From Psammoneis japonica (lineage: Eukaryota): DNA of 64,000 bases. A program made the position numbers and the translations under genes. The stretch covers positions 310,001 to 374,000 of the forward strand of contig QPGO01000048.1 of the NCBI GenBank assembly GCA_008632985.1. The letters run 5' to 3'. The notes beneath the pieces are model-generated. The model did no database searches and was not told the DNA's origin. It was given only the letters and a program-made list of their open reading frames with translations. Positions 11,739-64,000 of the stretch are shown here, one piece after another (the stretch's first letter is position 1; each line of letters opens with the position of its first letter).

Positions 11739-11747
11739 CCGCCCGCC

Positions 11748-34836: not shown

Positions 34837-35138
34837 GACCACAGCTATTTTTTGTACTTGTTGTCAACTTGCTATGTCGGCCGTCGCCGTCGAATCTCAT
34901 CTTCAAAACCTCCAAAATAATAGTGTGTTCGTGTGTCCAGGCCCGCCCGCGCGCGCTTTCAGCTTGATGCAAGGTCTGTCCACACCCGTTAAGGGGTTTT
35001 TGGTTCTTGAGTTTAACCCTTGGGCCAACAGACGCAACGCCTTTGAAAATATGCAAGAAAATGAAACTACTTGATCTATTCACGTGCTCTCTAGAGAGAG
35101 TATAAAGAGAGTCCGAGTTCGTAGATAAGCAATACCCT

Positions 35139-39620: not shown

Positions 39621-40278
39621 ATGAGCGCGCAAGCATTCATTGCTTTCTTGAAATGCGAGGCGAATCAAGCCGCGGAGCGCGCCAAGAGCCTAAGAGCTAC
39701 GGCAGCCGCAATCGAAGCGAATGCCGGTAGCGAAGGTAAGAACAAAATAGACGTACCGGTGTGATATGGGGTTGTCACCGGATGCCGGTACTGTAGGTGT
39801 GTTAATCAGACTGCTTGCTCTTGGCCATTTCAAAAGATTCAGGACGAAAGAAGCGCAAAGCCCGCGATCCCAGCAAGCCTAAGAGATCTCACACGGCATA
39901 CACTCTCTATGTGCACGAAAATTACGAGCTGATCAAGAAGAATCAAGATCCCAACATACCTTCAAAAGACATCATATCGCTTGTTGCAAAGCAGTGGGCT
40001 GAAACGAGCGAGGAAGATAAGCAGGTATGATAGAAAGGGTGATTCTAAATGGATTTCTCTTTGAGGATCAACTCACACTGCCGGATGGAACTCTTTCGTA
40101 TATATAGTTGTGGAAAGACCGCGCCTTAGCCCACAAAGTGGCGCATGAATCGAGCGAAGCTGGAGCAGGTGACATGGATGAGATGTTGGAAACTGATGGA
40201 GCAGAAGACTTGGAAGACGGGGACAAGGGCAAGAAAAGGCGCGCAACGAAAAAGGTAGCAAAGATGACCTACGTGTAG
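39621..40278 (+). CDS. HMG-box protein; exons 39621-39735, 39837-40024, 40108-40278
   Basis: RDPSKPKRSHTAYTLY...VAKQWAETSEEDKQ-LWKDRA. Both introns are GT-AG and phase-consistent. Confidence 0.88.
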
Positions 40279-40356
40279 AAGTTGGCTGCCGGGTTGAGGG
40301 CGATTTTACTGAATATGATACATCGTCGAGTGGGGGTTAGCTAGTTTTCATTTCCC

Positions 40357-42054: not shown

Positions 42055-42526
42055 TCAAGTATGCTTTTGTTGCCACGCAAAAAATTCCGGTGCTCACAGC
42101 TGCTCTGTCGGAGCTTGAGATGTATTGTGCGATCCGGTGACCGGTGACCGGTGATGCGATGATCAATCTCCGCGCTGCGTGCGCCGTTTTTTGCCGCCGA
42201 CCGCCGATGACGTGTCTGTGAAATTCGAACACATCGACTAAAAGCGAGGGCTAAGAATGTTCCTACCGGTACCGTACCGGTAGGACCTAAAGGTACCGTA
42301 CTTGAACTTGTTTTCAAATTACCTCAACTAAACCTTAACTCAAAGCTTGCTACTTGTCACAGTGTAGTAACAAAAATATGACACTTCTGGAGAGTACCGG
42401 TACCACCCAAGAGTGCGTGACAGCGCGATATCATTTTCATTGGTTCAAGGCACAACTTACGATTCTGTATATAAGACACTTCGTGTTGTCCAAGAGACCT
42501 CGAGGACAAGTCAATCAGAGTTTATC

Positions 42527-43420
42527 TTACAATCGCTCGCCAAACCCCTTCGACCACCTATCGTTATTAATTGCATATCTTTTGAAGGATTCTTCTCGAA
42601 CGATTGTCGCCACATCGCGAAGCAACGGCTTTGTTTTGTAGGAGTCCAACAGTTCTACCGAACCATCTGGTCGTTCGAGGTAAACCTGCCACGGCCCTGG
42701 GTACGCACGGAAAACCCAACCCTTGGATATACGTTTGAGATAGTACGCCTCCTCGAAACCCCGTTTGTTTCCAAGGTCGTATGTGGTTGAATAAGCATTG
42801 TTTAGAACAATCACAGGTGCTCCGGGTGATCCATGTGCGCTCACAAGACGATCCCAGGTCTCCTCGCCGCCCGGGTTAACGCAGATGACTACTTCTCCGT
42901 TACGGCCAGCACGACGGCTTTCAGGACTCATAACTGCACCGCTTCTACTGAGGTCTCCCATGGATTTTACATACTTGAAATTTACTGGCTCTGCAGATAA
43001 CACCGCAACTGGTTTCCCTCCAATGGGGCTTCCCTTTGCTGCTGCTCCAATTTTCTTTGCCCAGAAAAATGTTAGAATAGGGGATCAGGTTCCGGGAGAG
43101 ATCGCTGCCCGGTTTGTAGCCGCCAACGAAGCTCAGATCTTTACCAACGACAGTCTTTCCAAACTTCTGGTTTAGCGGGGTCCCAAACCTTACCTAAAGG
43201 ACACGTTGTATTGAGCGAAGTCACGGCAGAAACTGCACGGGAATCACAAATTGACGCCACTCACCTCCTCGGCATTAGGAACTGGTGGGAAGTTTACTTC
43301 GATCTTCTTTTTCCCCGCGCCCACAGCTCTCGAGACTGCAGCACTCGCTTGTTTTGCAATTTGGTCGTTGAACCAACCATCGTACAACTTTGGCATATCC
43401 TTTCCTCCGCCTATGGTTTT
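42527..43420 (-). pseudogene. DUF1995-type plastid protein gene, frameshifted in this assembly; 5' end unclear
   Basis: 'IEVNFPP', 'YYLKRISKGWVFRAYPGPWQVY', intron 43264-43194, and a +1 frameshift around the A5 run at 43065-43069. Confidence 0.65.
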
Positions 43421-43577
43421 CCGTTCAGATTGCAAAGATGTGATGAACACAATCAATGTACATAATCTCGGACGGTGCTGATGGGCTGGTGGTGATCAAG
43501 CTCTCTCGCTTTCTCGGCAATGGTTGAGAGTTGAGAGGGAGAGCCTCGCAGAATTACAGACATCGAATTTCACACTC

Positions 43578-43688
43578 TCGCAGTCGTGAGAAAATCGGGT
43601 GTAATTTTGGGGTGTTAATTCGCGCGATGCGCGTTTTTACACCCCCAAAATTACACCCCGAATTACACCCCAATTTCCACGACTGCGA
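43578..43688. mobile_element. ~110-bp palindromic MITE-like element
   Basis: TCGCAGTCGTG / CACGACTGCGA termini, with inner GGGTGTAATT / AATTACACCC arms. Confidence 0.65.
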
Positions 43689-44271
43689 CGGGTCTGAAAC
43701 ATCAGTTTGGTCCCAGAACACGACTAATCTATTCACACATTCAAGACTCAGCGCTCGATCGTTGCAGCAAATCGCAACCTCCAAACCGTCAGCCGTCAGC
43801 TTCTACTGTACAGGAGAGAACGAGACCATTCATCAACGTCTGATTACCTCTGTTGCAATTGCTTATATTACCAACCTCCGAGAGCTTTGTACTCTCTATC
43901 GCATGATAGGACTGTCTCTCGACTAGCAACACATGAAACACATCAACGGCAAGATGAAGCACCCGCAGCCGACATCGCTACTGCCAACTGACGCTCTCAT
44001 GGTGTCCCTGGCGCTCGCCTACCAACGCTGTTGGCCAGTATGTGTTGCCATAGGCTCAAGTTCAAGAAATAGGCTGGTATGTCGTCTCAACGGAAAAATG
44101 ATTAACATCCATATCTTAGGATAATTTTATATATGCCGATTTGTAACCTTTTTCGCGAATATTCGGTCCGTCATCTATCCGTCAGATTATGGATTTTCGT
44201 GACCCTTCATGCCTTTTTCACCGCGACACAGCACGGCAAAATGGCGTCGTCACGCCGTCACGATTTTGAGC

Positions 44272-44375
44272 ACAATGGAGGGTGGGGCATCGGTCGCCGA
44301 CGATTGTATTAGCCCCATTCGATACTTTAAAGGCTCGAATATGTCATCGGCGACCGATGCCCCACCTTCCATTGT
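44272..44375. repeat. 32-bp inverted repeat with 40-bp spacer
   Basis: 44272-44303 versus 44344-44375, 2 mismatches. Confidence 0.85.
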
Positions 44376-45303
44376 TATGAAAATGCCGTCTCATTTTCGC
44401 CATGGCCGACCTTACCAACAGTTGACAGGGTACGTATATTTCTACGTGATTCAGTACTCGTCATTTGAATTTCCATTTTTCTCACACCGCAACATCATCA
44501 ACCGCCATCGTCGTTCGCGTAGCCATGGCATCTAGGTAAAAAAGAGAGTAGCGCTACAGGAAAGAAAAAATTGGCTGTCCTATTAAAAAGAGAGTTAATG
44601 ATGCTCTCATTCTTTTGACAGCACACGTCTTGGTGAGCTCTGATGGGAAACGCCTGATGGCCAAATGCAGGAGACATTCATCGTGTGCTCCAGAATGGCG
44701 ACATTCGAGGCGGAATAACCAAAAGTGAGACATTGGATGCAATTTAGAAGGGATCTATTGAGTCTGTTGGTGCTTGTATTGCAAAATATACCGTGAAGGC
44801 ATGTGACAAGGTGGATGCCGTTGATGACGAGAAAGCTCCTTTCGCCGACGAGCCTCAAAATGACTCGACACCATGCCGTGGTTGGGGTGGAGAGAGGCAT
44901 AAGCTAGTAATATTGATGTCTGTTCAAGACAACTTGGAGGAAATGAAAGAGTAGTAATATATTTTTATGGAAATAGCAAGTCTAGCGGCTCATAATTTTT
45001 TGTCAGCAGTGCAGTTGGCAAAATTTGCATCCATTCACAGCTTCGAGTCCTCACGATTCTGTGGTGTTCGACACCCACTCTCAATATTGGGTGGAATATC
45101 ATCATATTCTTCGAAATTATTCTCTTCTTCAACATCTCAAAACGACTCAGCTACCGGTATAGTCGTCATGGTAAAGTACAGCGCTGCCCTTCGAGGTTGG
45201 ATTGGAGGTGGAGAAAAAAATTCTAATGTTGCACCTAATTTAATGCCAATATATACGTAGAAAAGACAGCAAAAAAGCGCGCAGGCCAACCCGTATTCGC
45301 AGA

Positions 45304-47263
45304 ATGGGATTCACCGTGGCGGCCTTCATACCAGCCTATTTCTTGAACTTGAGCCTATGGTGTTGCCCCTTCGTTGGTGATTTGCACCGTTCCACTGCTG
45401 CTTCAAGTGATTTTGGCCGTTGTGAACCAGCTCACAGTAAATCACGCAAGCCTCTTTATTGTCTTAACCGTATCCCTCGACGCAGTTGTACGGTTGACAA
45501 GTCAACGATACGCTCCCTCTTGTTCTGATGAGCGAGGCAGAGAATTGACACAAGGGCGAGTCCTTTCGCTACTGGCGTGTGCCATTGTCAGCGTCGTCCT
45601 GATACGGTTCCTCGTTTTACCAGTCCTCTTGTTGGCGTTAGTAGAAACGAACCATGCAAGCAGTGTCATTCTCTTTGAAGAAACTGAGGATACAAGCATT
45701 GCTACAGCCTTCATTCCATTCATTCCATATGAAACCATGTTTCGATGGTCGATGAGCGCATTTATTCTTGGTCTCACGGTTTTGCTGCGATTTGTGGGCT
45801 GGGCCTCTGTTGGTAAGTGGCATTGTTTTGCTCTCTGGGGTGTTCATCTCCTGTACTCTATCAAGCGTCTCTCACTATATTGGAAATCTCTTCTCGTTTG
45901 CTTAGTTCGATGTTCCACCGCTCCCCTTGTATCCAATTCATATTGGGCGGGCTTCAAGGCACTACTCGTAGATGGCGTGCTAGACCTGATTGCAGGCCTA
46001 AGTCGTAGTAAGCGCATTTTGTGTCGTCGCCAAGTTGCTAGCCATGTGCCGCACCGACGATACAAGAAGCCGACAGTCCGGGCATCAGCCTTGCATGTCG
46101 TTTTGGCAATTCTCAGTGGAATAGCTGTTGCATTTTTGATGTGCCCGCTCAAGACTGCATATTTTGTCAGTACTGTCGTGACCTGCGTCATTCAGCTGTT
46201 GTGCACGACCCTTGACGGTGTCTCTCACGAGCTGGACCCCAAGCGTTACTACAAGGCTAGTTTGAACCTCTTTCATGCAATGAAGTGGATTGTTCCTAAG
46301 ATGACAACAATCGTTTCTCTTTCAACATTGACGTCCGTGGTTCTGTTGTGGCTAGTACCGGCAGCTCAAGACGATTGCCATGCCTCACTCTTTGTGTTGA
46401 CCTGCTTTGGAGCTTCGGCTGTACTGACCTGCTACTTGACCATTACAGATGAAGCCTACCGCATGAGACTCTGCGCCGGGGGGTTGAGTTTGCGGGACCT
46501 CTTGTACAACGTACATCATCAAGACTCGCCATACTTCTGCATGGGTGTGTTGCTGAAGGCTATTCTTTGCGATGAATCTGCCCTTAGTACTATCGTCGAT
46601 AGTAACACTCCTATTCAAGGCTACAACCTAGAAGCACAGTTACGGCTGGAGCTACAGATGGTTTATAAATGTGCTGAGCAAGTGGAGAACGCTCGAGTGA
46701 GATTCTGGTTTTGCTTGGAGCAAGACATTTTGCGACTGCTAATCCTTGAGTCTCTTGGAGGAACAGCCGCGCCAATGTCAAATGTGCTGTACTGGGTAAC
46801 ATGCGAGGATTCTGGAGACGTCCGTATGTCAGTTGTATTAGTACGGGCGCTCTGTGCCCACATTAGTGGATTGGGTACGGCTTTACTCTCTTCCACGGAG
46901 CCGTTCTTGCCACCGGGAGCCTTGGTTTGCGCCGATCATGCCGTGAGAGCTGTTGCCCGACTGGTCGTCTGTGACTTGTCGTCCAACAGGCGTCCTGCAA
47001 GCTGCAACTGTACACCACTTTCAAAGTTGGTCCCTGCAGTGGTTGAATCCATCAATGTGCTTCGAAACGGAATTGGCATGAATACGAAGCACATAAAAGA
47101 CGAAGAACGCGTTCCACTTCTTCATGCATGTGACGAATCTGTTGTCTCTTTTCTGAGCGTCTTTGACCCTGGGATGCGCCGAAAGATGAATGGTGATCTC
47201 TTCTCTCCACTACAAGTTGTATCTCAGGAACTCGGTGACTGGATTGTGGGACTCGATTGGTAA
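45304..47263 (+). CDS. Multi-pass membrane protein, possibly NDC1-like nucleoporin; needs a 1-nt correction near 45366-45369
   Basis: 629-aa ORF with many N-terminal TM segments and a helical C-terminus ('AVRAVARLV', 'LVPAVVESI'). The ATG at 45304 is one base out of frame. Confidence 0.45.
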
Positions 47264-47504
47264 GCTGTAGCAACCAGCCACAATTCGCCAGCTTTTCGTG
47301 CAATTAGCGAGTAGCAAAAATACTTCTAGGTTTGTTCTAGATCAACGATTTTTCCATTTCGTAGTTACTTAGATAAAAAGTTTTTGCCTTGAGTGTTTAG
47401 TTGCGTTGCGTTGCGTTGCCTTGCTTTGAAAGAATTCTTTACAAAAAGGCTGCAGCGATAACCATCTGTGAGCCTGAATGTCAACGTCTGGTTTCCATGG
47501 CCTG

Positions 47505-47810
47505 AATTACTGCTGAATGGCGCTGAGTCAAATATAAAGTCAGAGGTAAGAGGCTATTTACCGCTTCATCTTGCAATACTGCGCGGACACCTGGACACGG
47601 CACGAATGCTAATTGGCGAATGGAGCGGGTGTTAACGAGACCAATGAAAACTCTTATTCAGCTCTGCACCCATTGGGTAGCAATGAGATTTTGTCAAAGC
47701 TGCTTCTCGAGCATGGAGCTGATGCAAGTTCAAAAACACGACACGGAGTCAAGCCAGTATATCTTGCGATCATGCTGGGTCATCAAGCCGTCCGAAAGAC
47801 GCTTGAGTAG
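47505..47810 (+). pseudogene. Ankyrin-repeat gene fragment
   Basis: LLLNGA...LPLHLAILRGHLDTARML / ANGAGVN...LLLEHGADAS...GH, with a frameshift near 47612 and no intact start. Confidence 0.75.
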
Positions 47811-47999
47811 TAAGTACTCGACACTTGAAGATAATAGAACCTGGAGAAAGGAAGTGCTGGGCATGACGGAGTTCTATACTTTTTTACTAGCATATACATA
47901 AATTTATCGCAGAATACTTTCCGCGATCGAAATCTGGCTGGAGGGGTGAAAAGGGCACATCTATTTATGGAAGAAACCAGATTTAAGATGATTTGCTTA

Positions 48000-50528
48000 C
48001 AGAGTACCGTAGTTGCAAAGCTGAGTGACGGTTTTCTCCTACAGTAGCAGACCTGAGTTCCCCAACATAGCAAGTAGACAAAAGCCACTGATCTCCTCAT
48101 AGCACTGTTTGATGTACGGGCCTTTCGTGGTAAGATCACTACGTTCAGTGTCGCTTCGACGAGCTTCTTGCGGTATGGCAGATAAGATGATCCTTGAATT
48201 TCTCGGTGGCTCTATCCGACGTCTAGCATACATTCCTCCAAAAAGAATATCTGCTAGGAACATAAACAATGGAAGAAGTCACAAATGCTGACTGCAACGC
48301 ACACCAAACTCCAGTAGGATGTGGTCCATTTTCCCTCGCAGAGACTAGGAACTGATGGTCTCGCTATCTACCAGACCAGCGCCGAAGAAGGTTACTGATA
48401 GCACCACTTTCAGAGGCATTGGCGAGTAATGCTCTGTCAAGTCTTTCGCAGAGGTGAATGCCTGATTCGGCATGACCAGCTGCATCGCAACATTGCATCG
48501 CTTTTGCGGCCGTAGAAGCTAAGACTTCTTGGTCTTCTTCAGAAAGAGATGTTTTGGCACTGGAGATGGAGTGTGCTGCTGCCGTGATACGGTGAATGTG
48601 GCGATGTGCGCTTTCCCAGCTTCTACCGAGTGACGGGTCCCACTCTGTTGAAAGCGATAACGCGTAGCCGTAGCATTGTTCCGCGTCAGACCAGCGCTTT
48701 CGCCCATGATTGTTCGCATTGCTGATCTTGAGCACTCACTGCAATTTTATAAAGGGTGGCGGCATGCCCACTGCATCCAACGCCGCATAGAGAAATCATC
48801 AGGGATGTGAGGATCTCCTCACCGCCGCGTACCCCCACCACCAGAGGTAGCAAGGACTCTTCGAGCGTCACGTTTCCTCTTTCAGAACGCAGTGTGCCAG
48901 CTTTACTTCTGTCCATAGAGTACATGGCGACGTCTACAAGGCGACCACAGAAAAGAGACATCCCGAAGCGACCAGCGGCGTTACAATTGCGCAATACAGA
49001 TGCTACAACGCCCCCCATTTCCGAGTGCCACGACAATGGATCCTTGTTGTCATCAGTATCAAGGTCAAATATGTCATCACCAGGGACAAGCCAGTTTGGA
49101 TCGTCGCATTTATCAATAACGGTGCATAGAACGTTGATGGCGGCTTCCCAATTCCCGTCCCGTTCGCAAGCTGTAACAACGCCTTTCAGTCCGTCGACAC
49201 TCAGCGGCCCGCCATCCTCAATTTCTCGAAACAGTGCCATTGCTTGAATGCTCGCATCTCCCTTCTCCAAGGTAGCGCCACACAAGGCTCGCATCGCCAA
49301 GTCCCTTATCAATGGACCGATGGCACCCGATCCGCCGCCCCATTGCCACTCGCTTTCTGCATCGAAATTGTCGTCCAACAATTCCACATACAACTCTAAT
49401 GCTTCATCATAACGAGAGCATAGGAGACAAGCATGCATGGCAGCAGCAACAAGTGACTATAAGACAACAATGTCAGTGTAAGGTATGAAAGAAAAACAGC
49501 TGTGTATATCAAAAAGTCAGTTCACACACCCTTCCGAGTCTCTCACTCTTGTAGCTAGTCCTAAGGTATCTGATGCATGACTCCCATTCTCCAACAAGCC
49601 CCAGTGTCACTCCAGCGGCCATTACATCTTCAACGATAGAAATAAGAAATAAAAAACAATGAAGGTAAGAACGATTCTCTCAAGCTCATAGGCAGCGACC
49701 GACATGCAGTTCTCGTGACTCACATTTATGTTGATCCGTCGGCGACACCATGGACATTTTTAGAACAGCCTCCATGACCTGTTCTGTTGCGGCGCCTCCT
49801 TCCTTCTGAGTCTGACGTGCTATCGAGTAGAGACCAACTGGATCTTTGAACGATGTGTTCATGGGTATGTACCCCGAGGCATCGGGGTCGATCTGGGCCC
49901 AGAACAGATCTGCGGCTTCCTTCCACAACTCTTCGCGCGACGCAGCAAGTACGGCACATTCATAGTGATGCGGCTGTATGTCGAGATTCCATCCCTTCAA
50001 AAGTCTAAAGATCTCCAAACAGAGTCGGAAGGGAGATCGTTCCATTTCTTCGAAGTGCGGTGTGGAGGAGAAAACCAAAATTGTTTCACCAAGAAAGTAA
50101 CATATTTCGCGGCCGTGCTTCCCAGATGGACTAATAACACCCTTTTCAACGGATTCCTGAACAAGACTTAAAAGACTCTCGGTTTTCTTCAAAAGCTGCA
50201 ATCGTTCGGAATGCTCTTTCGCATAACTCGCATGTATCCAGGGAGGTGGCATGGGCTCAAGCTCGAGCGCTTGACGCCGCAACGAAGCGATTTCGTCAGT
50301 GGCTTCTGCCATGGTGGGAGAAGACGGATTTCTCTGGCCTTGCAAGCCGCTTCCACGGTGTCGACTCTCATTCGTTTCACTCTTGTTGCGTTGCTGCGCC
50401 ATGCGATAGAGCGGTGGTCCATAATAAGTGGCCGTCGGAACGATGAGGTGGGGAAAAGACTGTCGAAAGCACCTCCTTGACGCGACCGGACGCCTGAGTT
50501 GGCTTATAGAGCCACGACATCGTTCCAT
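48000..50528 (-). pseudogene. PPR-like helical-repeat protein gene with frameshifts and a degenerate 3' end
   Basis: 'MHACLLCSRYDEALELY', 'VVTACERDGNWEAAINVL' and 'YECAVLAASREELWKEAADLF'. Frame breaks near 48700 and 48365. Confidence 0.6.
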
Positions 50529-50708
50529 CCTTGTCTATGCTGTGCTCACGGCTCACGGTTGCCTTTGCGGTGTGTTTCCAGTGAACCCAGCCGCCGCCGC
50601 TCGGCCTCATGCGTGCATGGCTTAGTACAGTATGAGCTTTCAGCTTGCGCCTAATAGCTAGAGTAGCTAGCTACTTCTACTCTCTAGAGAGTAGAGATAG
50701 TGGCCCTA

Positions 50709-51026
50709 CTACGAATTGCTGAACAATTGCGCGATACACGTGCCCGAAGGGTGATTGTTGCTTCGGGCACGAAATTCGAGCTTCGCGCACGTAGAGTCCG
50801 TAGAAAATATACCAGCATTCGAGAATGTCCGATTTGTGTAGATCACGTAGCACAGTACCACAGAGGTCATTGATGAAATTACTGCAACGACTCATGCGAC
50901 TACAATGAGATTTTCAATACCATATACTATGTAGAATGGACATCTGCGCGAAGGAAGAATGTTGCTTCGGGCAACGATATTCGACCTTCGGGCACGTGTA
51001 TCGCGCAATTGTTTTGCAATTTGTAG
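50709..51026. mobile_element. 318-bp MITE with ~42-bp TIRs and TA target duplication (Tc1/mariner type)
   Basis: TA|CTACGAATTGC...TGCCCGAAGG (to 50750) and CCTTCGGGCA...GCAATTTGTAG|TA (from 50985). Confidence 0.85.
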
Positions 51027-51589
51027 TACTGTACTCTCTCCATCGTGAGTTTGTGTGCGAAGCGCGCTCGGTGTACGGTCGACGCATAGACTCACGATGG
51101 AGAGTGACGTACCGCCCGGTAGTAGGCGTGCAGGCCTCTACTAACTTTAGTCGGGGATAAAATGTCCGAAATTTATGAACATTCTATAGCTTTGAACATC
51201 CCATAAATGTTAGCTTTCTATGTGTTTTGGCGGGAACCGTGTACTAGAGAGTAGGGCCCTCCCCTCCAGAAAAATGCGACCTCTCTCGAATCCGTTGACC
51301 ATGCATAATGTATCACAAAGAATTTTGAATTTCCCGATTCAAATAACACTTAGAACTTCCCTCCATTTTTCCTTTCCGTTGGCGAAAACGTTCTCGACTC
51401 CACCCAGTCTTCAGTCTTGTCGAGCCCCTCAAGTCTGTGGAGCGCAGCGCGTCGCGACATCGCGAGCCTTTTTTCGGAATTAGTAGAAAGTGTGCTGCAA
51501 TCTACACGGGAGTGTCTCGCTCAGAGTTCATTCTCCCCAGAAAAAAAGCTCATTTTTCTTCGATTGTGAAGACGAACAGCTCCATCACC

Positions 51590-52372
51590 ATGCCACTCAG
51601 TGACTGGATCACCTTTAAGAACCGCGTTGGTGCCAACCGCCAGGCTGCCAAGAAGCACAAGAACGAGGCCAAAAAGATCGGCTTTGAACTGTCCTTTTTT
51701 CTTCGCAAACCCAAAGCGAAGCGCCGCAAACTGCTTGCCTCGGGGATGAAGAGGGTGGCACGACTCACGAACTCCTTGAAGGACGACGAAGAAACCATCA
51801 AGACTCAAGAGGACAGGGTTGACAGCATCGACCAGGAGATCTTCAGGCACGAGGCTGCCGCAGCCGAAGCTCGAGCGGAGAAGGAGGCGGCGTTGGCGTT
51901 GATTGCAGAGACCAAGAGCCGCATGCAGACAGATGAGAACGAGTTGAAGCATTTGGAACCGAAGGTTCAACTCATGAAGGATGTCGTCAACAAACAGAAC
52001 GACATGCACTCCCTAGCCGATCTCACTACATACGACGAAGTCCAGAATCATGTGGGCCTCAAGTCACTCTCAGATGTCCAGAAGAGGGCCAGCAAACCAG
52101 AGCAAGTAGACGTGCTACTTCAAGATCTCATCGCTCAAGGATTGGAGGCTTTCGTTTTGCACAAACTTGGCGACATCAAGACTGGCCACGATGATCAAAC
52201 CGTGGAACAGCGTCAGATGTACATTTGCACGCTACTTGGCATCGAGATTTTCACCAAAGAGCAAGAAGAGGAGCGCGAGCTCAAAGACGATGCAGAGTAT
52301 CTCTTTAAAAGCCCGGAGCCCAAGGATGAAATCGAAGAAGGTCCTCCGGCCAAGAAGCCCAAGTTGAACTAG
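51590..52372 (+). CDS. Unknown intronless coiled-coil protein (260 aa) with C-terminal NLS-like PPAKKPK
   Basis: Clean ORF with gene-like codon use and a good ATG context (CACCATG). Confidence 0.7.
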   Translation: MPLSDWITFKNRVGANRQAAKKHKNEAKKIGFELSFFLRKPKAKRRKLLASGMKRVARLTNSLKDDEETIKTQEDRVDSIDQEIFRHEAAAAEARAEKEAALALIAETKSRMQTDENELKHLEPKVQLMKDVVNKQNDMHSLADLTTYDEVQNHVGLKSLSDVQKRASKPEQVDVLLQDLIAQGLEAFVLHKLGDIKTGHDDQTVEQRQMYICTLLGIEIFTKEQEEERELKDDAEYLFKSPEPKDEIEEGPPAKKPKLN

Positions 52373-52833
52373 TTTCCTGAGCTTCATGCGTGTGTGATAC
52401 GAAACAAATGCTGGTTTTGTCCTCTGCGGCATGGTTGTAGCTCCATGGCAACCTTCGAAGAAGGAGATCCTTCGAGTACCGTAGAGCGACAGTAAAATGA
52501 AACTATAGGAATGTGTCTGTGATTCTAATATTCTTATACTTGCTAGGCTAAAGTCGATATGATGGAACCAACAGTGTGCTCTTAGTTGAACTACTTACAT
52601 TAGCAGATACCGAAAGTATAGGTTTGCCATTGAGTGTCTGAATAAACAAAATAGGGGAGTACCTTCTGGATTTCTAGAAGAATGGGGTCTTGAAAGATTC
52701 TCGAGCACCTATAATGCCAGTGCAGCCCCCTAGCTAGGACTCCGACGGAAACTGCTACACCTGGTTGTAGGATGCATACACAGGCCTGCTCTAGTATATT
52801 GCTCGAGATTAGTTGAATGCTTTCATCTCTCCA

Positions 52834-53330
52834 TCCAGCCCCTCCTCCAAATGTACTATCAACGAAAGCACCGGCTCCAGCGCAGTCCCCTATGACTCCG
52901 GCGGAAACTGCTGCACTTTGTGGTACGATGCATCAACAGACCTGCTTTAGTATAACTCTCCAATCATTCTCGGGTGCGTTTCCTCGACAATGAACAGTCC
53001 TACCGGTACGGCTTTGCTCGGATCGCTTAGCTCGGCGGGTGAACTAGCATCCGATAGAGTATTTTCTCGTGGAAGGAAGAGGCAGCCTCCGAGTGTGTGT
53101 GGCCGAATCGAATCTAGCTTCTCCGAGGAATGTGCCGTAGGAAAATTGCAAAGGTCAGCTGAAACGCAGAGAAATTGCACGACCGTATGACGTGATAGTA
53201 GGTATCCAGCGTCCCATCAGTAAGTCTTGACCGAGTACACAGTTGGTGAATGATAGTCTTCAAGCTGAGCTACGTGTTGTGCCACTGACGAGGAGTATAG
53301 TCGTCTGTCGCTTTAAGAATGGAAAGGCCG
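52834..53330. repeat. Diverged direct repeat, copy 1 (copy 2 at ~55597-56030)
   Basis: Both copies begin ATCCAGCCCCTCCTCCAAATGTA and align for over 400 bp with indels. Confidence 0.9.
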
Positions 53331-53435
53331 TGCTCGAAGTTCTACAGATATGAAAGAGCACTTGAGAAAAATGGTCAACATGACGAGTGCAAATACCAAA
53401 AACCATCTAGCGTGTCTCCACTCATACTACTCACA

Positions 53436-53750
53436 TCAGCGCCCTGTCGTCCAACGCATTCCTGAAAGACAGCACTCGCCGCTCGGCAACGATTGATTTC
53501 AGCGAGCACCTACACACCACGAGTCGACGCCACGCTCTTCATCAATCTCACCGTTATCGCTTTTACAACGACGGACACCACCTTTTGTAATCAATTAGGC
53601 AGGAGAAGTTCCCGTCTTGCCAATCCAGCCAGAGTAAGACAAGCCCCTTGCCAAGCCCCGTGCTTTTGTGGATATTCAAACTTCATCAACAAGGCGTCCA
53701 AGATATCATCGGCACAATCCGACGGAAATCTCTCTGTGATTTTTCGCTCT
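53436..53750 (-). pseudogene. TBCD: Tubulin-folding cofactor D (TBCD) gene fragments
   Basis: 'KITERFP..CADDILDALL..F.....GAWQGACLTLAGLARRELLLP' and 'EINRCRAASAVFQECVGRQG', with stops and an internal deletion. Confidence 0.75.
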
Positions 53751-55219
53751 ATCCTTAGCTTCTGACCATCAAATATTAACGGTAGCAGCGCGTCCATCAA
53801 AGGATGTCACCTTCTTATTCTACGGGATCAATCATTCCCATAAAATAGGCATCGCCTTGGTCGTCGTCCTGAGCCACTTGACTCGTTGTAGTGAGCTTTT
53901 CTTTTATGGTGGTGGCGCTGTCATGGAGGTGCCACTGTTAGACAACGTTGCTCCTGTAGCGTCAACTGCAAGGCTCAACATCGCGCCCAAACAGAGCGTC
54001 GACAGTAGCAAGCGACATGTGTGTAGGGCACTCGAGATATTTGTCTAATATTCGTTCGGAGTTGCGAAACACAGCGTCTAAAAATCAGGCTACATGGACG
54101 CTATTGCCGCGAAGAAATGATATAGTAGCGATATCGGTGCGGAGTGCGGAGAATAACGCTTTCTATCTGCGCTCTGACAATGTGGGGGATTGCGTCTTTG
54201 GCGCGCATTCTGTTGACCTTTGGGTCATCGGATGGTGGCTTCAGTGCATGCAGTGTCCCTTCATAATTCTCGTTGTTTTTTTGTTTTTTGTTTTGAAAAG
54301 GCTTCTTTCCAACTGGCAACAATTTGTGCCATACCCTGTACTTTAGATTTAAAAAAAAAAGATGCTGCGTGAGAGAATATCACGCTCAAACCAATGAAAT
54401 ATCAACAAAGAGATCGACTTACCGTACCAGCGAGGGCGGTTTCCAGGGCTACTCTAGAGTGCAGGACTGTATTCAATGCATGACGGAGTGGGATAATCCA
54501 CGAAAAAAAGCCAAAGCAGAGTGGACCTTGCGAGGTAATAGACACGACGATTTGCCGACGGGCTTAACATTTCGCGGCCGACAAAGCCTTTGAATGTTCA
54601 CTGGCCATGTTGTCCTTACGCGAGCTGTCCTCGTTGTCCGAGTCCTCCCATCTGTCGGAAAGGGGCGGTGGCATGGCGTCATCGCCGCCATCTGTGGTCA
54701 AAAGACTGTTGTTCATGATGGAAAGCTTTACGATAATGATCCTTTGAGGCAGATCATCTTAAAGAAATTTGTCATCGTTTTTACCATCCTCCTCCTCTGG
54801 CTTGTCAAACTCTTCTGAAGTGTACGAATGGTCATCCTCGAAACTGCCGACGTTTCTGCTATTCGCGGTGGCTCCTTTCAAAGCTGATTCCATCTGTCAC
54901 ATCCAACAACACTCTGTTCGGTCTCGCTATTGTACTTGGTAACAACATATGTAGTCTCGGCATTCTTCAATCATTTGTCTGTTAGTTGTAGCGCCGGTAG
55001 GAGGGTAGTCTTCAACAACAGCAGAGGGTGTCTTGAGAGTGGGAACGGGCGGTGGTGATTGAAAGAAACTAGCAATCGGTAGAGTCGATAGTTCGGTCAT
55101 TTCGGATACCTTTGAGTTCTCGACCGTAGGCGTTTCGGCAGCTTTTCCTTTCGGTAGAGTTATCGCCGTGGTCTTGGTAGCAGTCTTGTATTTTCTCGTG
55201 ACGCCAGCCATTCCTCTAG

Positions 55220-56030
55220 CCCTGCTCCGGCGGAAACTGAGGCACTTGGTGGTACTTCGCCCCCCTTAACATCATAAAGTGCGTTTAAAGGATATCATAT
55301 GGTCGCTCTGATCTCTCCATCCCCTGCTCCTCCAACTGTGTTATCACGAAAGCACCGAAATTAATGCCAGCGCCGTCCCTGTTAATACATTTGGTGGTAC
55401 GATGCCCTCTTTGACGACACCATAAGCCCATCTCAAGGAGATCACTAGGACGATCCGATTTCTCTATCCCCTACTCCAACTAAGCTGTCAACAGAAGCAA
55501 TCGACTTTGACTCCGGCGCCGTCGTATTGATACACTTGGTGGTACGATGCCCTCTTTGACCACACCATCAAGTCCATCAGAATGAGATCAGTTGGAATCC
55601 AGCCCCTCCTCCAAATGTAATATCAATGAAAGCACCGGCTTTAGCGTCAGTGCAGTCCCCTACGACTCCGACAGAAACTGCTACACTTGGTGGTACGATG
55701 CATCGACAGACCTTCTTTAGTATAACGCTCCAACCGCAATTCTCGTGTGTGTTTCCTCCTAAATGAACAGCCCTACCGGTACGGGTTTGCTCGGATCACT
55801 TAGCTCGCGCCTCGCGGCCGAATCGACTCTAGCTTCTCCGCGAGCTGGAAATGAATAAGCCGTAGGAAAATTGCAAAGTTCGGCGAACTAGTGCGTATCC
55901 AGCTTCCAGCGTCCCAGCGGTAAATCTTGACGGAGTACACAGGTGTTGAATGATAGTCTTCAAGCTGAGCGCCTGTTGTGCCACTGACGAGGAGAATAGT
56001 CGTCTGCCGCGGTAAGAATGGAAATGCCGC
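55220..56030. repeat. ~150-bp diverged tandem units (x4) running into direct-repeat copy 2
   Basis: CACTTGGTGGTAC-like anchor at ~55242, 55388, 55533 and 55684, and also at ~52757 and 52913. Confidence 0.75.
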
Positions 56031-58064
56031 CAAGACAAGAGGCAACAACAGAATCACCGTAGTCTTGGCCATCTATGTCGTGCTGCCAATCTCCTTGTTG
56101 GGTGGAGGTGTGACAGAACGTGAGGAGGGGTCCGTTTTGGATTCGATTGGCGCGCAGCATGATCTATGTTGCTCAACGCCGTCATTTTCGCTCGGAGCTG
56201 TTTCTTTTGCTCGATCAGTCGATCAAACTCTTCGTGTCTTTCTTGTAATCTTCCCTCTGCCAACACTGTGCTTTTTGGTGACGAACGTGAAAGTGGCGAT
56301 TGACAAATCACCGGACGACGGTCAGCACACGGCAGAGAATTTCAGTCCGTTCGCAGATGAAACCATTGTCATTCACTTGATGAAAGGGACTAAAGCATAT
56401 GCTATCTGGATGCTACTGAGCACAAAAACCAACGTCCGCATTTTGAAAAGAGAGGATAGCAGTTCGCCGACAGGCAGCTATTAAAATGGGTCGAGGTCAA
56501 TCCGAAAAAATAAATCCAAAATGAATTTCCAAAATCGGATCGAAGTTCAAGTTGTGACGTAAGCATATGTCCTACGTCAGCAGTTACAGTAGTTGACCAG
56601 GAACACTCACGAAAATGTCTCCAACAAGGACAAATGCGACATTTCGTATTGTCATACGACAATTAGGTACTGTACATTAATGCGGTCTTTTTTGTTCATT
56701 GGATGACTTCGTTAAATGATCATTTTTTGCCAGTTTTTTTTCACATTTTGACAACATCGCCAAAATCGCCAATGGCATTAAGTTATTTAGGGATATATGC
56801 GATTCACATGTGTGAATTTTTGGCGAAGCTAGACAAAGTGAGACAAAGTTGGCGATTGGCGATCAATCCAACGGCCAATCCAACGCATCGAAAGCAAGAA
56901 ATTCGGACATTTCACTTGTGTCGACCGCAGTGCAAAGTGCAAAGTGCGAAAAACAAATGTGTGCCACTGCGTGTCGGCAACTGGCAATGCAAGTTGCTCT
57001 TGTGCCAGCTTTGGCAACAATGCTGCCGGCATCAGCAATGCTGCTGGCACTTCTGCTGCAGCACAATGCTGCTGGCACCACTGCTGGTGTCGACACAGCT
57101 CTGACACTGGCTGATGTCATCGACAGTTTCCTGCCTGGCTCAGCGAGCCACCACTGCACTGCAGCAGGAGTCATGGTCGCCCCGCTTGCTTGTCATGAAG
57201 TTGGCCGGGGTGGGGCCAGTTGGTCGTGCATGTTTGGGTTCGATGCAGCCGTGCAACCAGCCATGCCTTGCAGGCAGAGCTGTGATGTTGATTGCACCAT
57301 GTGATTTTTTCGGACATGAGAAGAGTGCGCTCTTTAGATGCTTCATCTTCAGAGCAATGAACACATCTCCTTCATCATCCGACACTTGAGCAAGGATGTC
57401 ACGGAGCGGGTCACGGAGTTGCTCACCAAAGGATTTTCCCGACCCCTCCTCCCCGCCCCCACTCCTCACAGCCAGATGCAGTCTCAGTGCATTGTGCACT
57501 CAGACTTGTCATGTCCTGAAGATTGCAAACGACATCATCATCACCCAACCTTTTCAGATTTGAATGAAAACATGAATCGCATCAAACATGCAAGATTTGT
57601 CTTTGCTTGAATGCGTGTTTTGTCAAAACACAGCAGCGCGCAGTTGGGAGCGCAGCACCAGTGCTCACATCAGGAGCACAGGCGCTTGCACAGCATCGCA
57701 GTGAGCAACGTGCACTTTGCTGCATGCTGGAAACGGCCGTTTCTCCCACCACAAACAAACAAACATCGTCAACATGGAGCACCTCCAACAATGGCCATTG
57801 CCGCTGAAAATGAGCACTGTCGATGTTGTGTTGATGCCATTGGACCTGCTGTTGTCAACACAAAAACTGGCTCACAATGAAAACAAATGAGAATGTTCTC
57901 TTGAGCCGAAATGTGTTTCTTCATTCTCACATTGTTCTCAGTGAGTGAATCAAATTGCTCCACTGCATTTGACGGAATCCATTGATTCAATGCATTTTTT
58001 GGTTTGCTCAACTTCTTGTTCTCCTTTGATCTTTGTCCACATTTCCACAGGAAAATGTCGCATC

Positions 58065-58250
58065 ATGCTGGGCAGCTCAAGTTGACACCACTTCAAACGG
58101 GGCGGTTCAAGCGGATGCCAAATCATACGAGGCCACTCAAGCGGATGCCAACACCTTGCTGGGCAGCTCAAGTGGACACCTGCACCTCACTGGGTGACTC
58201 CAGCAGATGCCAACACCTTGCTGGGTGACTCAAGCAGATGCCAACATTGA
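58065..58250. repeat. 30-31 bp tandem repeat x6
   Basis: CTCAAG-like anchors at ~58076, 58106, 58136, 58167, 58198 and 58229. Confidence 0.8.
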
Positions 58251-58619
58251 ATGTTGTGTGGAGTGGTCCAAGGGTGAGGAGCATTTTTCATTTTAAAATC
58301 TGCAATCTGCCACTTTTGGGAAAGTCCCGACACAAAGGGCAGACGAGGTTGCTTTCGTCTCTGACAATTGCGAGCAACTGTGCCGAGTTGGCTGACTGCA
58401 GCGGCGCCTCGGCAATTTTTTTCTGCAAGACGGCCTGCGAGAGCCAAGGGGTTGCTCCCCGGCGAGACAGAGAGTGGCACCTCCAAGGAAGGGGGTGCCA
58501 CTCGACGTGCCATGACCCGAATCTCAGTTGGATGGGGTTTGCCTGCCCTGAAAGGTGGTGATTGGTTGTTTTCAAGGAATGCAGCAGGATGGAAGGACAA
58601 AACAGCTGGATTCAATTGA

Positions 58620-61600
58620 TCTGCAGCACAGAATGGTTGTCGAAAAGCTTGGATGGTCATGCGGAGTAGGACGTCTAGACGCCTCTCCTCCTGCGGACGC
58701 TTGTCCATTTTCTTGTGCTTGCACACCTTCTTGCAAAGTCGATCTTGCGCAATGCCATCGACTGATCCAATGTCTGAAAGGCTTTGGGCACGGGAAAAAG
58801 CAGTGCAGGTCAAACCATGCTCCTTCTCGCGGTTGGACAAATCGACGACAAAATGGGACTTGATGGTTTGGCCTTGAGCTTTCCACCAAACAGTCATCGC
58901 CCAGCAAAGCTTCAAGGGCAACACAGCACGAGCATGTTCACACAGCCCGCATCATCTCGCTTTTGAGTGCACATGGCTGCAGTCACAGGGTGAATTGGTG
59001 CCCAACCTTGGTGACTGTCATCGTCAGGAAAAAACGATCCTCCACCGCAGTCTCTGCCAAAGTCAACCCACACAAACTTTGGAAGAGATGGAGCCAAGCC
59101 TGATTCGTCACACACAATGTCCTTTGCTGTCCCAGTTGCTCCATTGCACAATCCCGCCAACTGAGCAACATTCATGGCAAGCATTGCTTGTGCTCCGACG
59201 CTGAGGTGCGCCGAATTCTCCAAGCCTCGAAAGGAATCGGCCGTCTTTTTCTTGCCATCACCAGCATTTTTAGCTCGCACCAGAGCAATGGGCTTGCCAA
59301 GCGTCTTAAGATTCTTGTTGTTGAATTCTTCCACTTCAGAATTGGTCGTGAACAGATGCGGCGTTCCATCATTTTCAAACCCCGACTCATGCCATTTGTA
59401 AAGACCCATGGAATGTCGTGAGCACGTGCGTCGCAGCTTGACCCAGTCCGCTTCTGTGCAATTTCCATCATGAAGACGCTCTGGGAAGCCACAGAACCAA
59501 ACTGATTTGGGATCGTTGGGGTCGATGCGATTGTTTTTTGTCAGCTTGATGACCGTGTTGAACATTTGGCAGAGATTGCCTCTGTTTCGATCATCATTGC
59601 TTGCAAACCCAGTCGCTTCCCACAAACAACGTCCTCCTGCTGGTGGCAACTGTCCAGGATCACCAGCCAATGCCACAACGACTCCGCCAAATGGTTCGTT
59701 GACACCTTTGATTTCACACAATCTCCGGTCGATGTGATGAAGCTCTCTTTGACGCAGCATCGAGAACTCATCAAGATTCAAAAGCTTGAGATTTGCAAAC
59801 TTGTCTTGAGCTTCAGCAAGATTTTTGTTCGTGAGAGGACGACAACGTCTGCCAGAGAGGGGCATTCCCAGTCCTTCTTGGTGAGAGTGAACCGCAGATC
59901 CACCAATGACCATCGCAGCCTTGCCTGTTGCAGCCACAAGAGCACAGCTGCTTGTCGGAAGTCCACGGTCCTGGAGAGTGGCAGCAACAGCATCAACAGC
60001 AAATGATTTTCCTGCACCTCCCATCCCAACAAGGAGAGTGCACTGTCCCTCACTCTCTCCAACAACAGCACTTGCAATTGCATCGTGAGCTGGACGTTGT
60101 CGTTCATTGAGCGAGTTGAAAGAAACTTGACTCCTTGCAGCTTGATCGACGGGGTTAGACATGAGATGATCACACTTTCGCTCCACTTCCTCGTCCCATC
60201 CATCACATTCCGGACAGTCATGCTCGAGTTCTGAAAAATCATGATCCTCTGACCATTTGAGATTGCTTCCAGAGAAAGAGCTGACGCATCGTCCATCTGC
60301 GTGGCATGCCCCACATCCATCCAAGAGTCTTGGCTTGCATCCGTTGAACCAGATTCCGAGTCGTCACCCATTGGCGCGTCAACGTCATCATTCACGCCGT
60401 TCCTGTTGGGCAAGCGCAAGCTCGATTCAATCTCGCGTTGAAGGAAACCAGGAATTTGTCAACCTTGTCGCGTCAGAAATGGAGCATGCTGGCTCCAAGC
60501 ACGGATGACATCGTCATTGGATGCGTTGGCGCCACCCCAAGCAGATTCAAATGTGCCACTCCATGGTTGATGCTTGGTCAATGAGTGCTTGCAGTGCTTG
60601 ACAAAGTTGGGACCTCCAGGAGAACTTGGGACTCGAGGTGCAAAAATGGCCACCGTGTTGGGTTTCTGGTGGCAGCAGATTTTCTTCTTGTGCTTTCCCG
60701 ACTTGCCAACATAGAATCTAGCGGCAAATTCTTGTAGAGTGAGGTCTCTAAGTCCTGGCTCAAAGGCTGCAAAAACTGAACAATCGGCCCAGGCTTCTTG
60801 GTTGAGGCGTGTGGCGCATGCATCAACGACCGTCGGCATTGCAGCAGAATCCGCTCCTGCATCGGCGCCAACGTCTCCATCAGAAGGATCACCCAACTCC
60901 TCCAGGTCAACTTGCCCAGTGGCATTTTCGAGATTGACAGTGACAAAGGTGTGGGAGCAAGAGACAAGAGGCAAACTTAAAATGAGATGGCGCGTCTCCT
61001 GTTTGGAAACCATTCGCTCGCCTGTTCAGGGCAACCATTTTGATTCATTCAAAGAACGAACAATGCACTGTGAGTGGAAATGTAAAGTCACACAAGGATC
61101 AAATCAAAACTAGACGCACCCAAAAGCTTGGCCATTGCACTCTTCAACGCTGCCTGTGCACTGCATCCATCATCGATTTTCTGCTCCACTGTTTTGTGAA
61201 CCATCGCGGTCATTCGCATGGACGGCATGCTGGATTCAGACTTGAAGACATGCTTGGTCATGTGCTCAACGACCTTGCCGGCATCTGCAACAAGTCGGAA
61301 ATCAACATTGGCTCTCCAAACCTTGAACATTGGGATGCAATGACTGTTGATCCACTTGTCATTGCGTGCCGACACCATTTCCATTCTTGAGACTTTTCGG
61401 GTCTCTCCAGCTTTGTTCTTGACAAGCTCCTCTACAACAACCAGACGAGAAATTCTTGAAAGCTGCAAAGGACATCCAAAGCAACAGTCCAAAATGTGTT
61501 CATCTGCTTTTGCCTTGTCGCACTTGGACTTGTTGCGGTCACAGCAGCCGCTGGGCTTGCATGCACGCCGTTCCACCGCGTTGCATGGATTGCAGCAGTT

Positions 61601-63904
61601 GCCAGTGCGGTCATCTCTCGTCATCTCCAGCACATCTTGAGGCCTGTCATTGCTTGGGTGCACTCCATCCACCCCGGGACGAAACTTGGTGGACTCTGGC
61701 CGCTCGTCGGATGTGGCATCTTCTGGAGGGCTGGGGTGAAACGCAGAGATGAGAAAATCATCAAAGGCGACAACCACGTCTTGTGCCTCCTTTCCATCTC
61801 TGACAGCTTGCAGCATCTGTTCAAAAGAAAGCTCCTTGTCATCTTTGCATTCAAACTCCTCTTCATGTGTGTCCAGTTCACGATCCTCCTTGGCAAAATC
61901 GTCATCCTCATCCAGTGGACCTTGTTGGCACAGTTTCAAAGCAGCCAATCTTCCTTCCAAAATAACCTGTGACAGGTCTGTCAGCCCCGGGTCAGCCTCC
62001 AGTTGCAAACATCCATGAACATGAGCGGTGCCGCGGGCTTGGCATTTGATCCAAAACCAAGTCCAGCTTGTTTTCATCCCATTCTTTCCAAAGAAGCTCT
62101 TTGTCATCAAATTGACCCGTTCTTGAAAGAAGGCGTCAACAATGTGAGGGTCATCTAAGACAGCCTTGCGACAACAGGCGGCTTTCTCTTCTTCTGAAAA
62201 CTCTTCACAGCCAGAGTTGCAAATCAACAAGGCGCGAAGGTCCGCCCAGTGGTTGTCGGTGGCTGAAAAAGCAAACCATGATGCAGGCATTCCGCACTGG
62301 TCTGTCAGAGCCTCGAGCTCCTTCTTCTTCTTGTAGAAATGCGAATCGCTGCCTGGGATGTTTGCGTTGAACTTTTGCATGTTGGAAACAAGTTCTTTGA
62401 AGCGCGGCCCATTCTCTTGCACTGCATGCTTCAGCTCTTCCTCGGTGAGCTGTGCGTCTTCTGGGCACTTTCGCAGGTGTGCTTTCTTTTGATCCTGGTG
62501 ACGGTGCCGAGTGGCAGCATTCTCGGCCCAATGCATGCACCGATTGTGGCATGCAAACGGACACACCCACTCTCCCTCCTTGTCATCAAAATGGGCATGC
62601 TGCAGCAAGTGCTTGTTTGCCTCCGCCATGGCAACATTGATGCGGCGATCGTCACACGTGACATCCCCGTTGCCGTGCGGGAAGAGAGCAGGAAAGGCTG
62701 GGCTTTGAAGCCAAGGAAAGGTGCAGTCATTGATGGGCTGGCCGTTGTTTTCAATCTCTTGGACGACGGAAGCAGGATCAAATCGATCGTGGAGAGTGCT
62801 AGAAATTTCGGCGCGCTGCTGACCTGGATGAGGGCCAGATGGCAGACACCCAGATGCGACATCCTCACCCTCCTGTCCGCTTGCCCCGCCTTGTTCTGGA
62901 CCACTTGCAGCAGCATCTTGGTCTTCACTTGCATTGCCTGCTGGCTCACTCTCATCTGCAATTGATGACATAGAATCCGCAACTGATCCATCCTGTGGGA
63001 GCAACAAAAGATTGTCCAGGTTGATGTCGATGTCACAACAGCCTGGATGATTTTCCTTCAGCCAGACAAGCCATTCTGCAACATTGTCGCGGCGAACCTG
63101 AAAGTCTTTGCATCCATTTGGTGTCCTTTGGTTTGGCTTTCGAAGGACAAAAACTGGCAAGTCGGAAACCTTGAGTGGAAGGCTCGCAATGACTTCGTTC
63201 ACATCCTTTTCAAGATTCACGACGGATCCTTTGCACCCGACTTGCCCGGACTGAAGGCAACAGCACTTCATGACAGTGTGAGCACAAGCAATGAGCATCT
63301 CTTCAACCTCAGATGGCTCGGGCAGGTGTGCAGGACGTCCCTTGGTGCAGACATCCATGTCATTTGCTGCAGAGAAACAACTCAAGCCATGCTCCTTGAC
63401 ATCCTTGGAACAAGCAAGGCACTGCTGCGGGTCGGACTCATTCATGTTCAAGATGAACCAGTGCTTCTTGCAAGTGGCACACCACATCATTTCTGTCTTT
63501 GAAATTCCGTCCACAAATTCATCTTGACAAGCTTTCATCTGTGGACCAGTCAAACAAGAGTGAGAACGATTGAAGAGGAAAGTGACGACAATCAACATCG
63601 TGTCTCTTGCATCGGAGTGGTCTTCTAGATTGACACCTGGATGCTGGCCGTCCCTGCAAGCTTCAAAACATTCAACAAGAGAAGAGGGTGGAACTGGAGG
63701 GTCATCAGAAGAGGACGAAGTAGATGACGATGACGAGGAGGAAGACAACGACAAGGACGAGGAAGGGTCATTGTCCATCGATTGCCTTTTTCGTCTGTTT
63801 GCTTGTTTCATTGCTTGGCGGTTTTGCAGCCTTGCTTCTGCCATTGACATTCCTTTGAAAAATCTGGCTTCTGCATTTGATTGGCGTTGTCGAGCCCTTG
63901 CCAT
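58620..63904 (-). pseudogene. Helitron Rep(HUH)-PIF1 helicase, mutationally inactivated; intron 61119-61022
   Basis: AFPALFPHG.GD, F..SA.D.HW, 'CQARGTAHVHG' (HUH) and 'HMTKH' (cf. YxxKY). PIF1 motifs GMGGAGKS, DEFSM, FGG...GDPGQLPP, GLCNGA.G, KAQGQT and AFSR. Stop at 60459; frameshifts near 60260 and 58930. Confidence 0.93.
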
Positions 63905-64000
63905 TTCTTGCCATTCTTGAGTCGACAGGTGATCTCGTGCTCGTGCTTGAGATTGCTCCTTCCTTCCATTCGCAACTCTGTGATTGTTGGTGGAGGAATC

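Follow-up and report, generated by a model that had tools for sequence, protein, structure and literature searches.

The DNA analysed here (the window; 64,000 nt of the diatom Psammoneis japonica, G000:C44:310001-374000) ends in an island from which the dinucleotide TpA has been almost erased. This island (56831..64000), called like the other TpA-poor islands by two-state hidden Markov model (HMM) segmentation, retains 24 TpA and continues past the window end into the neighbouring stretch L010. Most of it is covered by the minus-strand body of a Helitron transposon (57195..64000), which is 85-93% identical to copies on contigs C211, C22, C19 and C201 and ends about 1.5 kb past the window. The body carries two minus-strand open reading frames (ORFs), a Rep ORF with DUF6570 and Helitron_like_N (61091..63997; 969 aa with 1 Tyr, 46 Cys and 35 His) and a PIF1 helicase ORF (58915..60363; 483 aa, 1 Tyr). 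At its 5' end (L010:1000-1900) the element is rich in TA and unmutated both here and on C211 (46/53 TpA kept), whereas the copies on C22, C19 and C201 are mutated there, as is a local duplicate at L010:2500-4300 (12/59 kept). A contig of run X1 carried one extra base at position 58940, close to where the PIF1 ORF ends; the base may come from another Helitron copy or be a sign of an assembly slip.

Surviving TpA sites

Between 56840 and 64000, 24 TpA were counted in 7161 nt (observed/expected ratio 0.055, against 0.652 in 32001-56830). The original prediction, made from the letters of the window, held that the survivors are mostly followed by two purines or preceded by two pyrimidines (TARR/YYTA), that RTAY is nearly erased and that the mutator reads context beyond the dinucleotide. 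The eleven motif positions cited in its support were all located, at most 2 nt off. TARR/YYTA contexts accounted for 22 of the 24 survivors, compared with 635/1387 of the TG/CA sites in the same span (Fisher p 3.8e-6). For pooled counts, the window islands 2577-4108, 13055-31000 and 56831-64000 were combined and compared with the background TpA outside the islands; 9582-11573, 11574-13054, 31001-31999 and 51504-52013 were in neither set. TARR/YYTA made up 90/100 of the TpA in the three islands, against 558/1387 in the background (p 1e-23) and 325/765 in unmutated copies of transposable elements (TEs; p 1e-20). RTAY was nearly erased, as predicted, with 2/100 in the islands and 424/1387 in the background; on the plus strand of the three islands GTAC, ATAT and GTAT were absent and ATAC occurred twice. 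The many TTTAAA that had been expected came down to five in islands and one in the Helitron span.

That one TTTAAA (58292..58297), the coldest hexamer of the rate model described below, is TA in 5/5 copies. The surviving TCTAGA at 58674..58679, whose model rate is 1.8 where hexamers range from 1 to 37, is TA in 2/4 other copies. The sole Tyr among the 969 residues of Rep was, as noted earlier, encoded as TTC-TAC (61431..61436, minus strand; TCTACA on the plus strand), and the site is TA in 3/4 other copies. Altogether, comparison with the other Helitron copies marks 20 of the 24 as old sites (for 19, another copy also has TA; for one, others have TG and CA), while four may be new TpA. The bias was repeated in further islands (133 kb non-redundant, 658 TpA, taken from TE and gene-match flanks and so not a random sample), where RR/YY accounted for 490/658 and RTAY for 53/658, against 1527/5149. 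After these checks the survivor contexts did not match the background. The proposed resistant class needed refinement: among 758 pooled survivors, the resistance of TARR held for TARA (enrichment 2.73) and was weaker for TARG (1.31), and TARY was neutral (1.0). As a flag, TARR/YYTA captures a real bias but is too coarse, its log-likelihood gain on held-out data being 115 as against 538 for a four-position model.

Mutations in young transposon copies

Young elements were sought because survivor counts cannot tell which strand was mutated. Copia family A (L062-L082) was polarised with a reference copy that has identical long terminal repeats (LTRs; L054:1997-8525). Its 20 other copies, 86-99% identical, have lost 4 to 228 of up to 281 TpA, and CpG is largely retained except in the three most diverged. 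Between the LTRs of one and the same copy, 82/131 differences were TA losses, 70 in the 5' LTR and 12 in the 3' LTR, which shows that the mutation occurs after insertion. TpA loss in this family is a front moving 3' from the 5' region, the mean loss being 0.61-0.66 at 0.5-1.5 kb and going down to 0.04-0.06 at the 3' end. In 17 of the 20 copies TA had become TG in 789 cases and CA in 591, and was kept in 3185; other outcomes were TT (6), AA (6), CG (6), GA (3) and gaps (7). Single transitions thus numbered 1380 and transversions 15, and with a strand ratio of 1.03 both strands were mutated equally. These copies show that TA is converted to TG or CA after insertion, equally on the two strands and almost exclusively by transitions.

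Copia family B (L059:80-7200, L105-L124) comprises about 20 full-length copies, 94-97% identical. They have in common a first kilobase rich in TA and a TA-poor body in which long open frames are found. Transposition seems to have continued once the family was mutated, as though TA-poor variants evade further damage.

The six-base flank code

Flank effects were estimated with competing per-strand hazards, a free exposure for each copy and 400-nt bin, and a site bootstrap. Family A contributed 4761 observations at 271/281 sites from 18/20 copies, the two most diverged being dropped; family B contributed 2133 at 116 sites. Family C (843 observations, 374 sites, 10/19 loci) and the Helitron 5' end (163 observations, 56 sites) were treated as one set of 430 sites. 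A T at position -1 was almost obligatory for the mutated A. With positions counted from the mutated A, the pooled rates were C 4.0, T 3.9, G 1.5 and A 1 at +1; C 2.0, T 1.9, G 1.7 and A 1 at +2; A 1, C 0.60, G 0.57 and T 0.47 at -2; and A 1, G 0.73, C 0.54 and T 0.38 at -3, with site-bootstrap |z| of 3.5 to 15 and the same signs in all three element sets. The hexamer rates that result range from TTTAAA (1.0) and TCTAGA (1.8) to GGTACC (14.5) and AATATT (36.9).

Applied to the window survivors, which it had not seen, the model predicted 0.85 RR/YY and 0.044 RTAY; the observed fractions were 0.90 and 0.02 (0.74 and 0.081 in the other islands). Synonymous changes were not favoured, the synonymous/non-synonymous rate ratio being 1.17. 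The claim that the mutator reads past the dinucleotide was upheld by polarised events in young TE copies from three sets, for which codon selection is no explanation.

Strand choice and tandem edits

At sites reading TAY on one strand and TAR on the other, the TAY strand received 1192 edits and its complement 537. Sites with TANA on one strand only received 277 and 255 edits on their two strands, yet the site as a whole was protected. At YTAR sites of the Helitron body, ascertained from copy differences, TA was kept in 33/95 with TANA/TNTA and in 0/55 without. Gains in held-out log-likelihood were 317 for a fully symmetric model, 322 for a 3'-only model with independent strands, 433 for a mixed model with a strand-specific +1 and a duplex-level +2 base, and 538 for four free positions. 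The fully duplex-symmetric and the 3'-only models, beaten by the mixed and free models, were rejected. The earlier suggestion that protection acts on the duplex therefore applies to the outer (+2) base, which acts on both strands, but not to the inner (+1) base, which acts mainly on its own strand. Approximately, the inner base determines which strand is edited and the outer pair raises or lowers the rate on both, which accounts for the survival of GTAGA and TCTAC despite a TAC on one strand.

Doubly mutated TATA sites were edited on the same strand in 95/124 cases, where 58 would be expected from sequential independent edits (site bootstrap of the same-strand fraction 0.67-0.86, across 34 sites). 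Natural TGTA and CATA sites showed own-strand edits in only 163/519 and 204/398. The same-strand doubles would represent two lesions made at one spot in one cell cycle. Strand coordination was absent at distances of at least 3 nt, both at 3-15 nt and over long range, and likewise in low-load bins; per-copy strand residuals stayed within z 2.2 across 39 copies.

Other mutations, CpG decay and structure

Bins with at least half of their TpA lost were classed as heavily mutated. In these bins, private A to G changes at A's not preceded by T were more frequent only with a pyrimidine at +1 (42/6175, versus 15/11918 elsewhere); with a purine at +1 they were found in 9/7179 versus 12/13405. The heavily mutated bins had 1151/2866 mutated A's in TA, 25/4719 in CA, 15/3715 in AA and 11/4920 in GA. 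CpG decay was higher there (81/3998 vs 20/6507) and other C to T changes did not rise (27/12997 vs 40/22313, p 0.61), indicating that these bins are not simply older. Judged from the CpG decay, they look methylated.

Structural features were examined within the flank model, with local 62-nt folds. Neither a predicted hairpin loop (1.06, z 0.5) nor the unpaired probability of single-stranded DNA (ssDNA; 0.89, z -1.3) had an effect, and the rate was unaffected by palindrome arms, local GC content or a neighbouring TA. There was no preference for TACG (term 0.88, z -0.5). A weak 10-nt periodicity (0.042, standard error 0.02) was one among six periods tried.

Breadth and candidate enzymes

Among 80 metagenome Copia reverse transcriptase (RT) loci, 77 had ordinary flanks (pooled RTAY 0.315 of 12,526 TpA), two of them being nominally RTAY-low (p 0.004 and 0.01). 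RTAY was low at L169 (2/94) and L171 (1/88), which represent one Copia element at 98% identity, and was 22/120 at L159. The RTs of all three share 52-54% identity with that of family A, and so the elements probably belong to other organisms. At L169/L171 there is no protection by A at +2, which, on few sites, gives a hint of a related process whose fine code differs.

Profile searches of the genome gave nine matches to PF00383, five to PF14437, one to NAD1 and none to Inv-AAD. We take the PF00383 and PF14437 matches to be dCMP deaminase, an organellar-type TadA (L129), guanosine-deaminase-like genes and RibD. Locus L132 has an exon with HAE...PCxxC that we read as ADAT2-like. A scan for this pattern in the DNA gave 66 matches, mostly chance, among which no new deaminase was recognised by eye. 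L131:313-1785 (minus strand, G000:C79) encodes a zinc deaminase domain, presumably guanosine-deaminase-like, fused to a DIOX_N/2OG-Fe(II) oxygenase. A rare AID/APOBEC-like zinc deaminase gene lies at L216:1060-2019 (minus strand, G000:C2); of 1.84 billion representatives, 10 are related to it at E <= 1e-10.

Other features of the window

An older island depleted of both TpA and CpG (13055..31661) retains 74 TpA with the same survivor bias as the other islands. Its CpG observed/expected ratio is about 0.8 at 13-17 kb and below 0.12 at 23-31 kb, whereas TpA loss is uniform, which indicates that TpA was erased earlier than CpG. A small island at 2577..4108, likewise depleted of both dinucleotides, has 2 TpA. 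Excluded from the counts were a partly depleted island at 9582..11573 (15 TpA) and a TpA-poor island at 51504..52013 from the HMM segmentation. The block 11574-13054, flanked by two depleted islands, is TA-rich (99 TpA per kb, GC about 0.38) and is possibly a recent unmutated insertion. The unmutated background used as a control (31662..56830) bears zf-UBP, MFS and MATE genes, and those homologs of the MATE gene that were named by organism are from diatoms. Long ORFs without a Pfam match were seen in unmutated background at 45353-47263 (636 aa), 35439-36971 (510 aa) and 7343-8947 (534 aa).

Proposed mechanism and alternatives

In our judgement a host mutator probably turns A to G at TpA of transposon DNA by chromatin-targeted adenine deamination, and we infer that the agent is an enzyme. 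Such a mutator would target transposon DNA after insertion, in domains that also appear to carry CpG methylation. A zinc deaminase recruited through silent chromatin would deaminate adenine to hypoxanthine, which would be read as G and fixed during replication. Deamination would take one site at a time, chromosomal DNA being opened only locally, and such local action would bring both A's of one TATA within reach of a single visit. A more specific version is offered tentatively: a diatom double-stranded DNA (dsDNA) adenine deaminase, drawn to methylated transposon chromatin, may read the quasi-palindromic AATAYY/RRTATT and flip out the A that has a 3' pyrimidine, often both A's of TATA, and might exemplify an A-to-G defence of distant protists with drifting flank codes.

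Several observations weigh against this interpretation. The residual site variance of the flank model is 3.1, so that much heterogeneity is left unexplained by the code, and the copies partly share ancestry, so that the events are not fully independent. The Helitron 5' set on its own showed no strand choice by the +1 base (22 vs 20), and the free four-position model beat the tied model on held-out data (538 vs 500). As the outer base acts only approximately alike on the two strands, the data also fit an ssDNA enzyme that makes contacts on the 5' and the 3' side; if those contacts match, it predicts the same table, and a duplex substrate is thus not proven. The rate was lower where a CpG lay within 10 nt (ratio 0.86, z -3.5). 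No fitting enzyme was found among the PF00383 and PF14437 matches, which are housekeeping-type deaminases, and the start codon of the APOBEC-like gene seems to be out of frame relative to P0121, a related protein that is intact. The sequence data fit a modified A and a modified opposite T alike, and they do not separate lesion formation from context-dependent repair.

An error-prone polymerase resembling Pol eta or iota, which puts G opposite template T in short repair patches of silent chromatin, with the flanks reflecting primer/template stacking, seems unlikely. It would account for the influence of both flanks, one patch could yield same-strand TATA doubles, and Pol eta prefers A to G changes at WA motifs (PMC4042646). 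WA also covers AA, however, which was mutated in only 15 of 3715 cases where TA was mutated in 1151 of 2866; moreover, transversions were rare (15 against 1380 single transitions at TA), same-strand coordination was absent at 3-15 nt and beyond, and there was no strand bias. A marked base is also an explanation to which we give little credence. The T of TpA would be oxidised to 5-hydroxymethyluracil (5hmU) or 5-formyluracil (5fU), the products of TET/JBP-like oxidation of T, and mispair with G, or the A would be methylated and then deaminated, the context being that of the writer on duplex DNA. It would follow that strictly TpA is used, that both strands are affected, that the outer base has its effect on the duplex and that no ssDNA or hairpin effect is seen. 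The few changes at CA, AA and GA keep the 3'-pyrimidine rule, which is simplest for a single A-centred site, although the rule can equally be read as a 5'-purine rule for T.

Uniform TpA lesions, with flanks that reflect DNA shape or the repair of inosine and mismatches (AAG, EndoV, mismatch repair), are improbable as the whole explanation. The quasi-palindromic ranking from TTTAAA (1.0) to AATATT (36.9) does resemble a duplex-shape variable and the outer-base effect is strand-neutral, but a TpA-specific source of lesions would still be required, and the fine context differs at L169/L171, which speaks against a universal physical property of DNA, albeit with no more than about 90 independent sites. 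It is very improbable indeed that ancestral composition, codon selection, new TpA or assembly artificially produced the bias among survivors. CpG decay can inflate TACA and the four possibly new survivors would fit such a view. Against it, the explanations by composition, codon selection and new TpA were ruled out by the polarised events, which show the bias directly, by the synonymous ratio of 1.17, by the 20/24 old survivors and by the background flanks of unmutated TE copies (RR/YY 325/765); contigs of run X1, which may be the assembly's own sample, cover 30/30 bins of the stretch.

The quantified code provides a fingerprint for recognising the mutator: any candidate enzyme must rank AATATT far above TTTAAA, favour an edited A whose 3' neighbour is a pyrimidine and be sensitive to the outer pair whichever strand is edited. 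Should the enzyme work on duplex DNA, both genome defence and base editing would gain a new chemistry. The flank code also allows TE ages and dN/dS to be corrected in such genomes.

Comparison with known systems

A process of the same kind is described in one preprint on Bigelowiella natans, in which integrated DNA of nucleocytoplasmic large DNA viruses (NCLDV) as well as of virophages undergoes TpA to TpG/CpA hypermutation; adenine deamination was proposed, with ADAT2/3 as a candidate, and the de novo rate was raised about 1000-fold and active in some lines only (Mettrop et al., bioRxiv 10.64898/2026.01.13.699255). The main text of the preprint reports no flank past the dinucleotide and does not mention diatoms (10.64898/2026.01.13.699255). 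As far as that text goes, a targeted A-to-G DNA mutator has been reported in one other alga, without an enzyme and without specificity beyond TpA. In both organisms TpA changes to TpG/CpA on both strands and nearly only by transitions. The restriction to foreign or mobile DNA is also found in the diatom, with its islands beside spared genes and its young TE copies; the targets there are transposons (Helitron, Copia), in contrast to the viral DNA of Bigelowiella. The ADAT2/3 candidate conflicts with the +1 pyrimidine of the diatom, provided that the known preferences of ADAT2/3 carry over. A literature search that covered few subscription journals found no description of the TpA process in diatoms and no papers on TpA base flipping or on a natural dsDNA adenosine deaminase.

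The off-target motif described for TadA/ABEmax is UACG(A) in a hairpin loop, and TadA-8e is described as having no clear downstream preference (PMC8052359, PMC12296453). The diatom process resembles TadA in changing A to G, in needing a 5' T/U and in favouring C at +1, but T at +1 equals C, G at +2 is unfavoured and A at +2 strongly disfavoured, and neither a UACG preference nor a hairpin-loop effect was found. Fungal Tad2-Tad3 (ADAT2/3), in its mRNA editing, is described as preferring U at -1, a purine (A/G) at both +1 and +3, UAG/UAA contexts and hairpin loops, and ADAR is said to favour G slightly at +1 (PMC11156358). A strong U/T at -1 is common to ADAT2/3 and the diatom. However, ADAT2/3 acts on RNA, its favoured UAG/UAA contexts are the resistant ones in the diatom, and its +1 purine preference is reversed there, where the rates are 4.0 with C and 3.9 with T but 1.5 with G and 1 with A. 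Sense-strand RNA editing of the ADAR type does not agree with the strand ratio of 1.03, the mutation of a DNA transposon as well or the low rate with G at +1. Pol eta is described as causing WA hypermutation with strand bias (PMC4042646). It shares the preference for A to G after T; in the diatom, AA is about 100-fold below TA and the strands are equal.

Repeat-induced point mutation (RIP) of ascomycetes, a premeiotic process that homology triggers and that depends on RID, introduces dinucleotide-specific transitions into repeats, co-located with methylation, and makes TpA from CpA. The diatom process is likewise a dinucleotide-specific transition mutagenesis of repeats, but runs in the opposite direction, destroying TpA (slope of C to T at CpA -0.0009), and its loss spreads from the 5' part of a copy instead of covering the repeat evenly. 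DddA-type enzymes, bacterial double-stranded DNA cytidine deaminases with a strict 5'-T dinucleotide target, act on C and not on A; DddA serves as a working analogy only, by virtue of its 5'-T target on duplex DNA. The flank profile of the diatom matches none of TadA, ADAT2/3, ADAR and Pol eta as described in these sources, and the +1 pyrimidine and the hexamer ranking argue against the ADAT2/3 candidate and a plain TadA. To what is known of such systems the present analysis adds a measured six-base code, its division into an inner base that selects the strand and an outer base that acts on the duplex, and same-strand edits in tandem, which together narrow the enzyme class.

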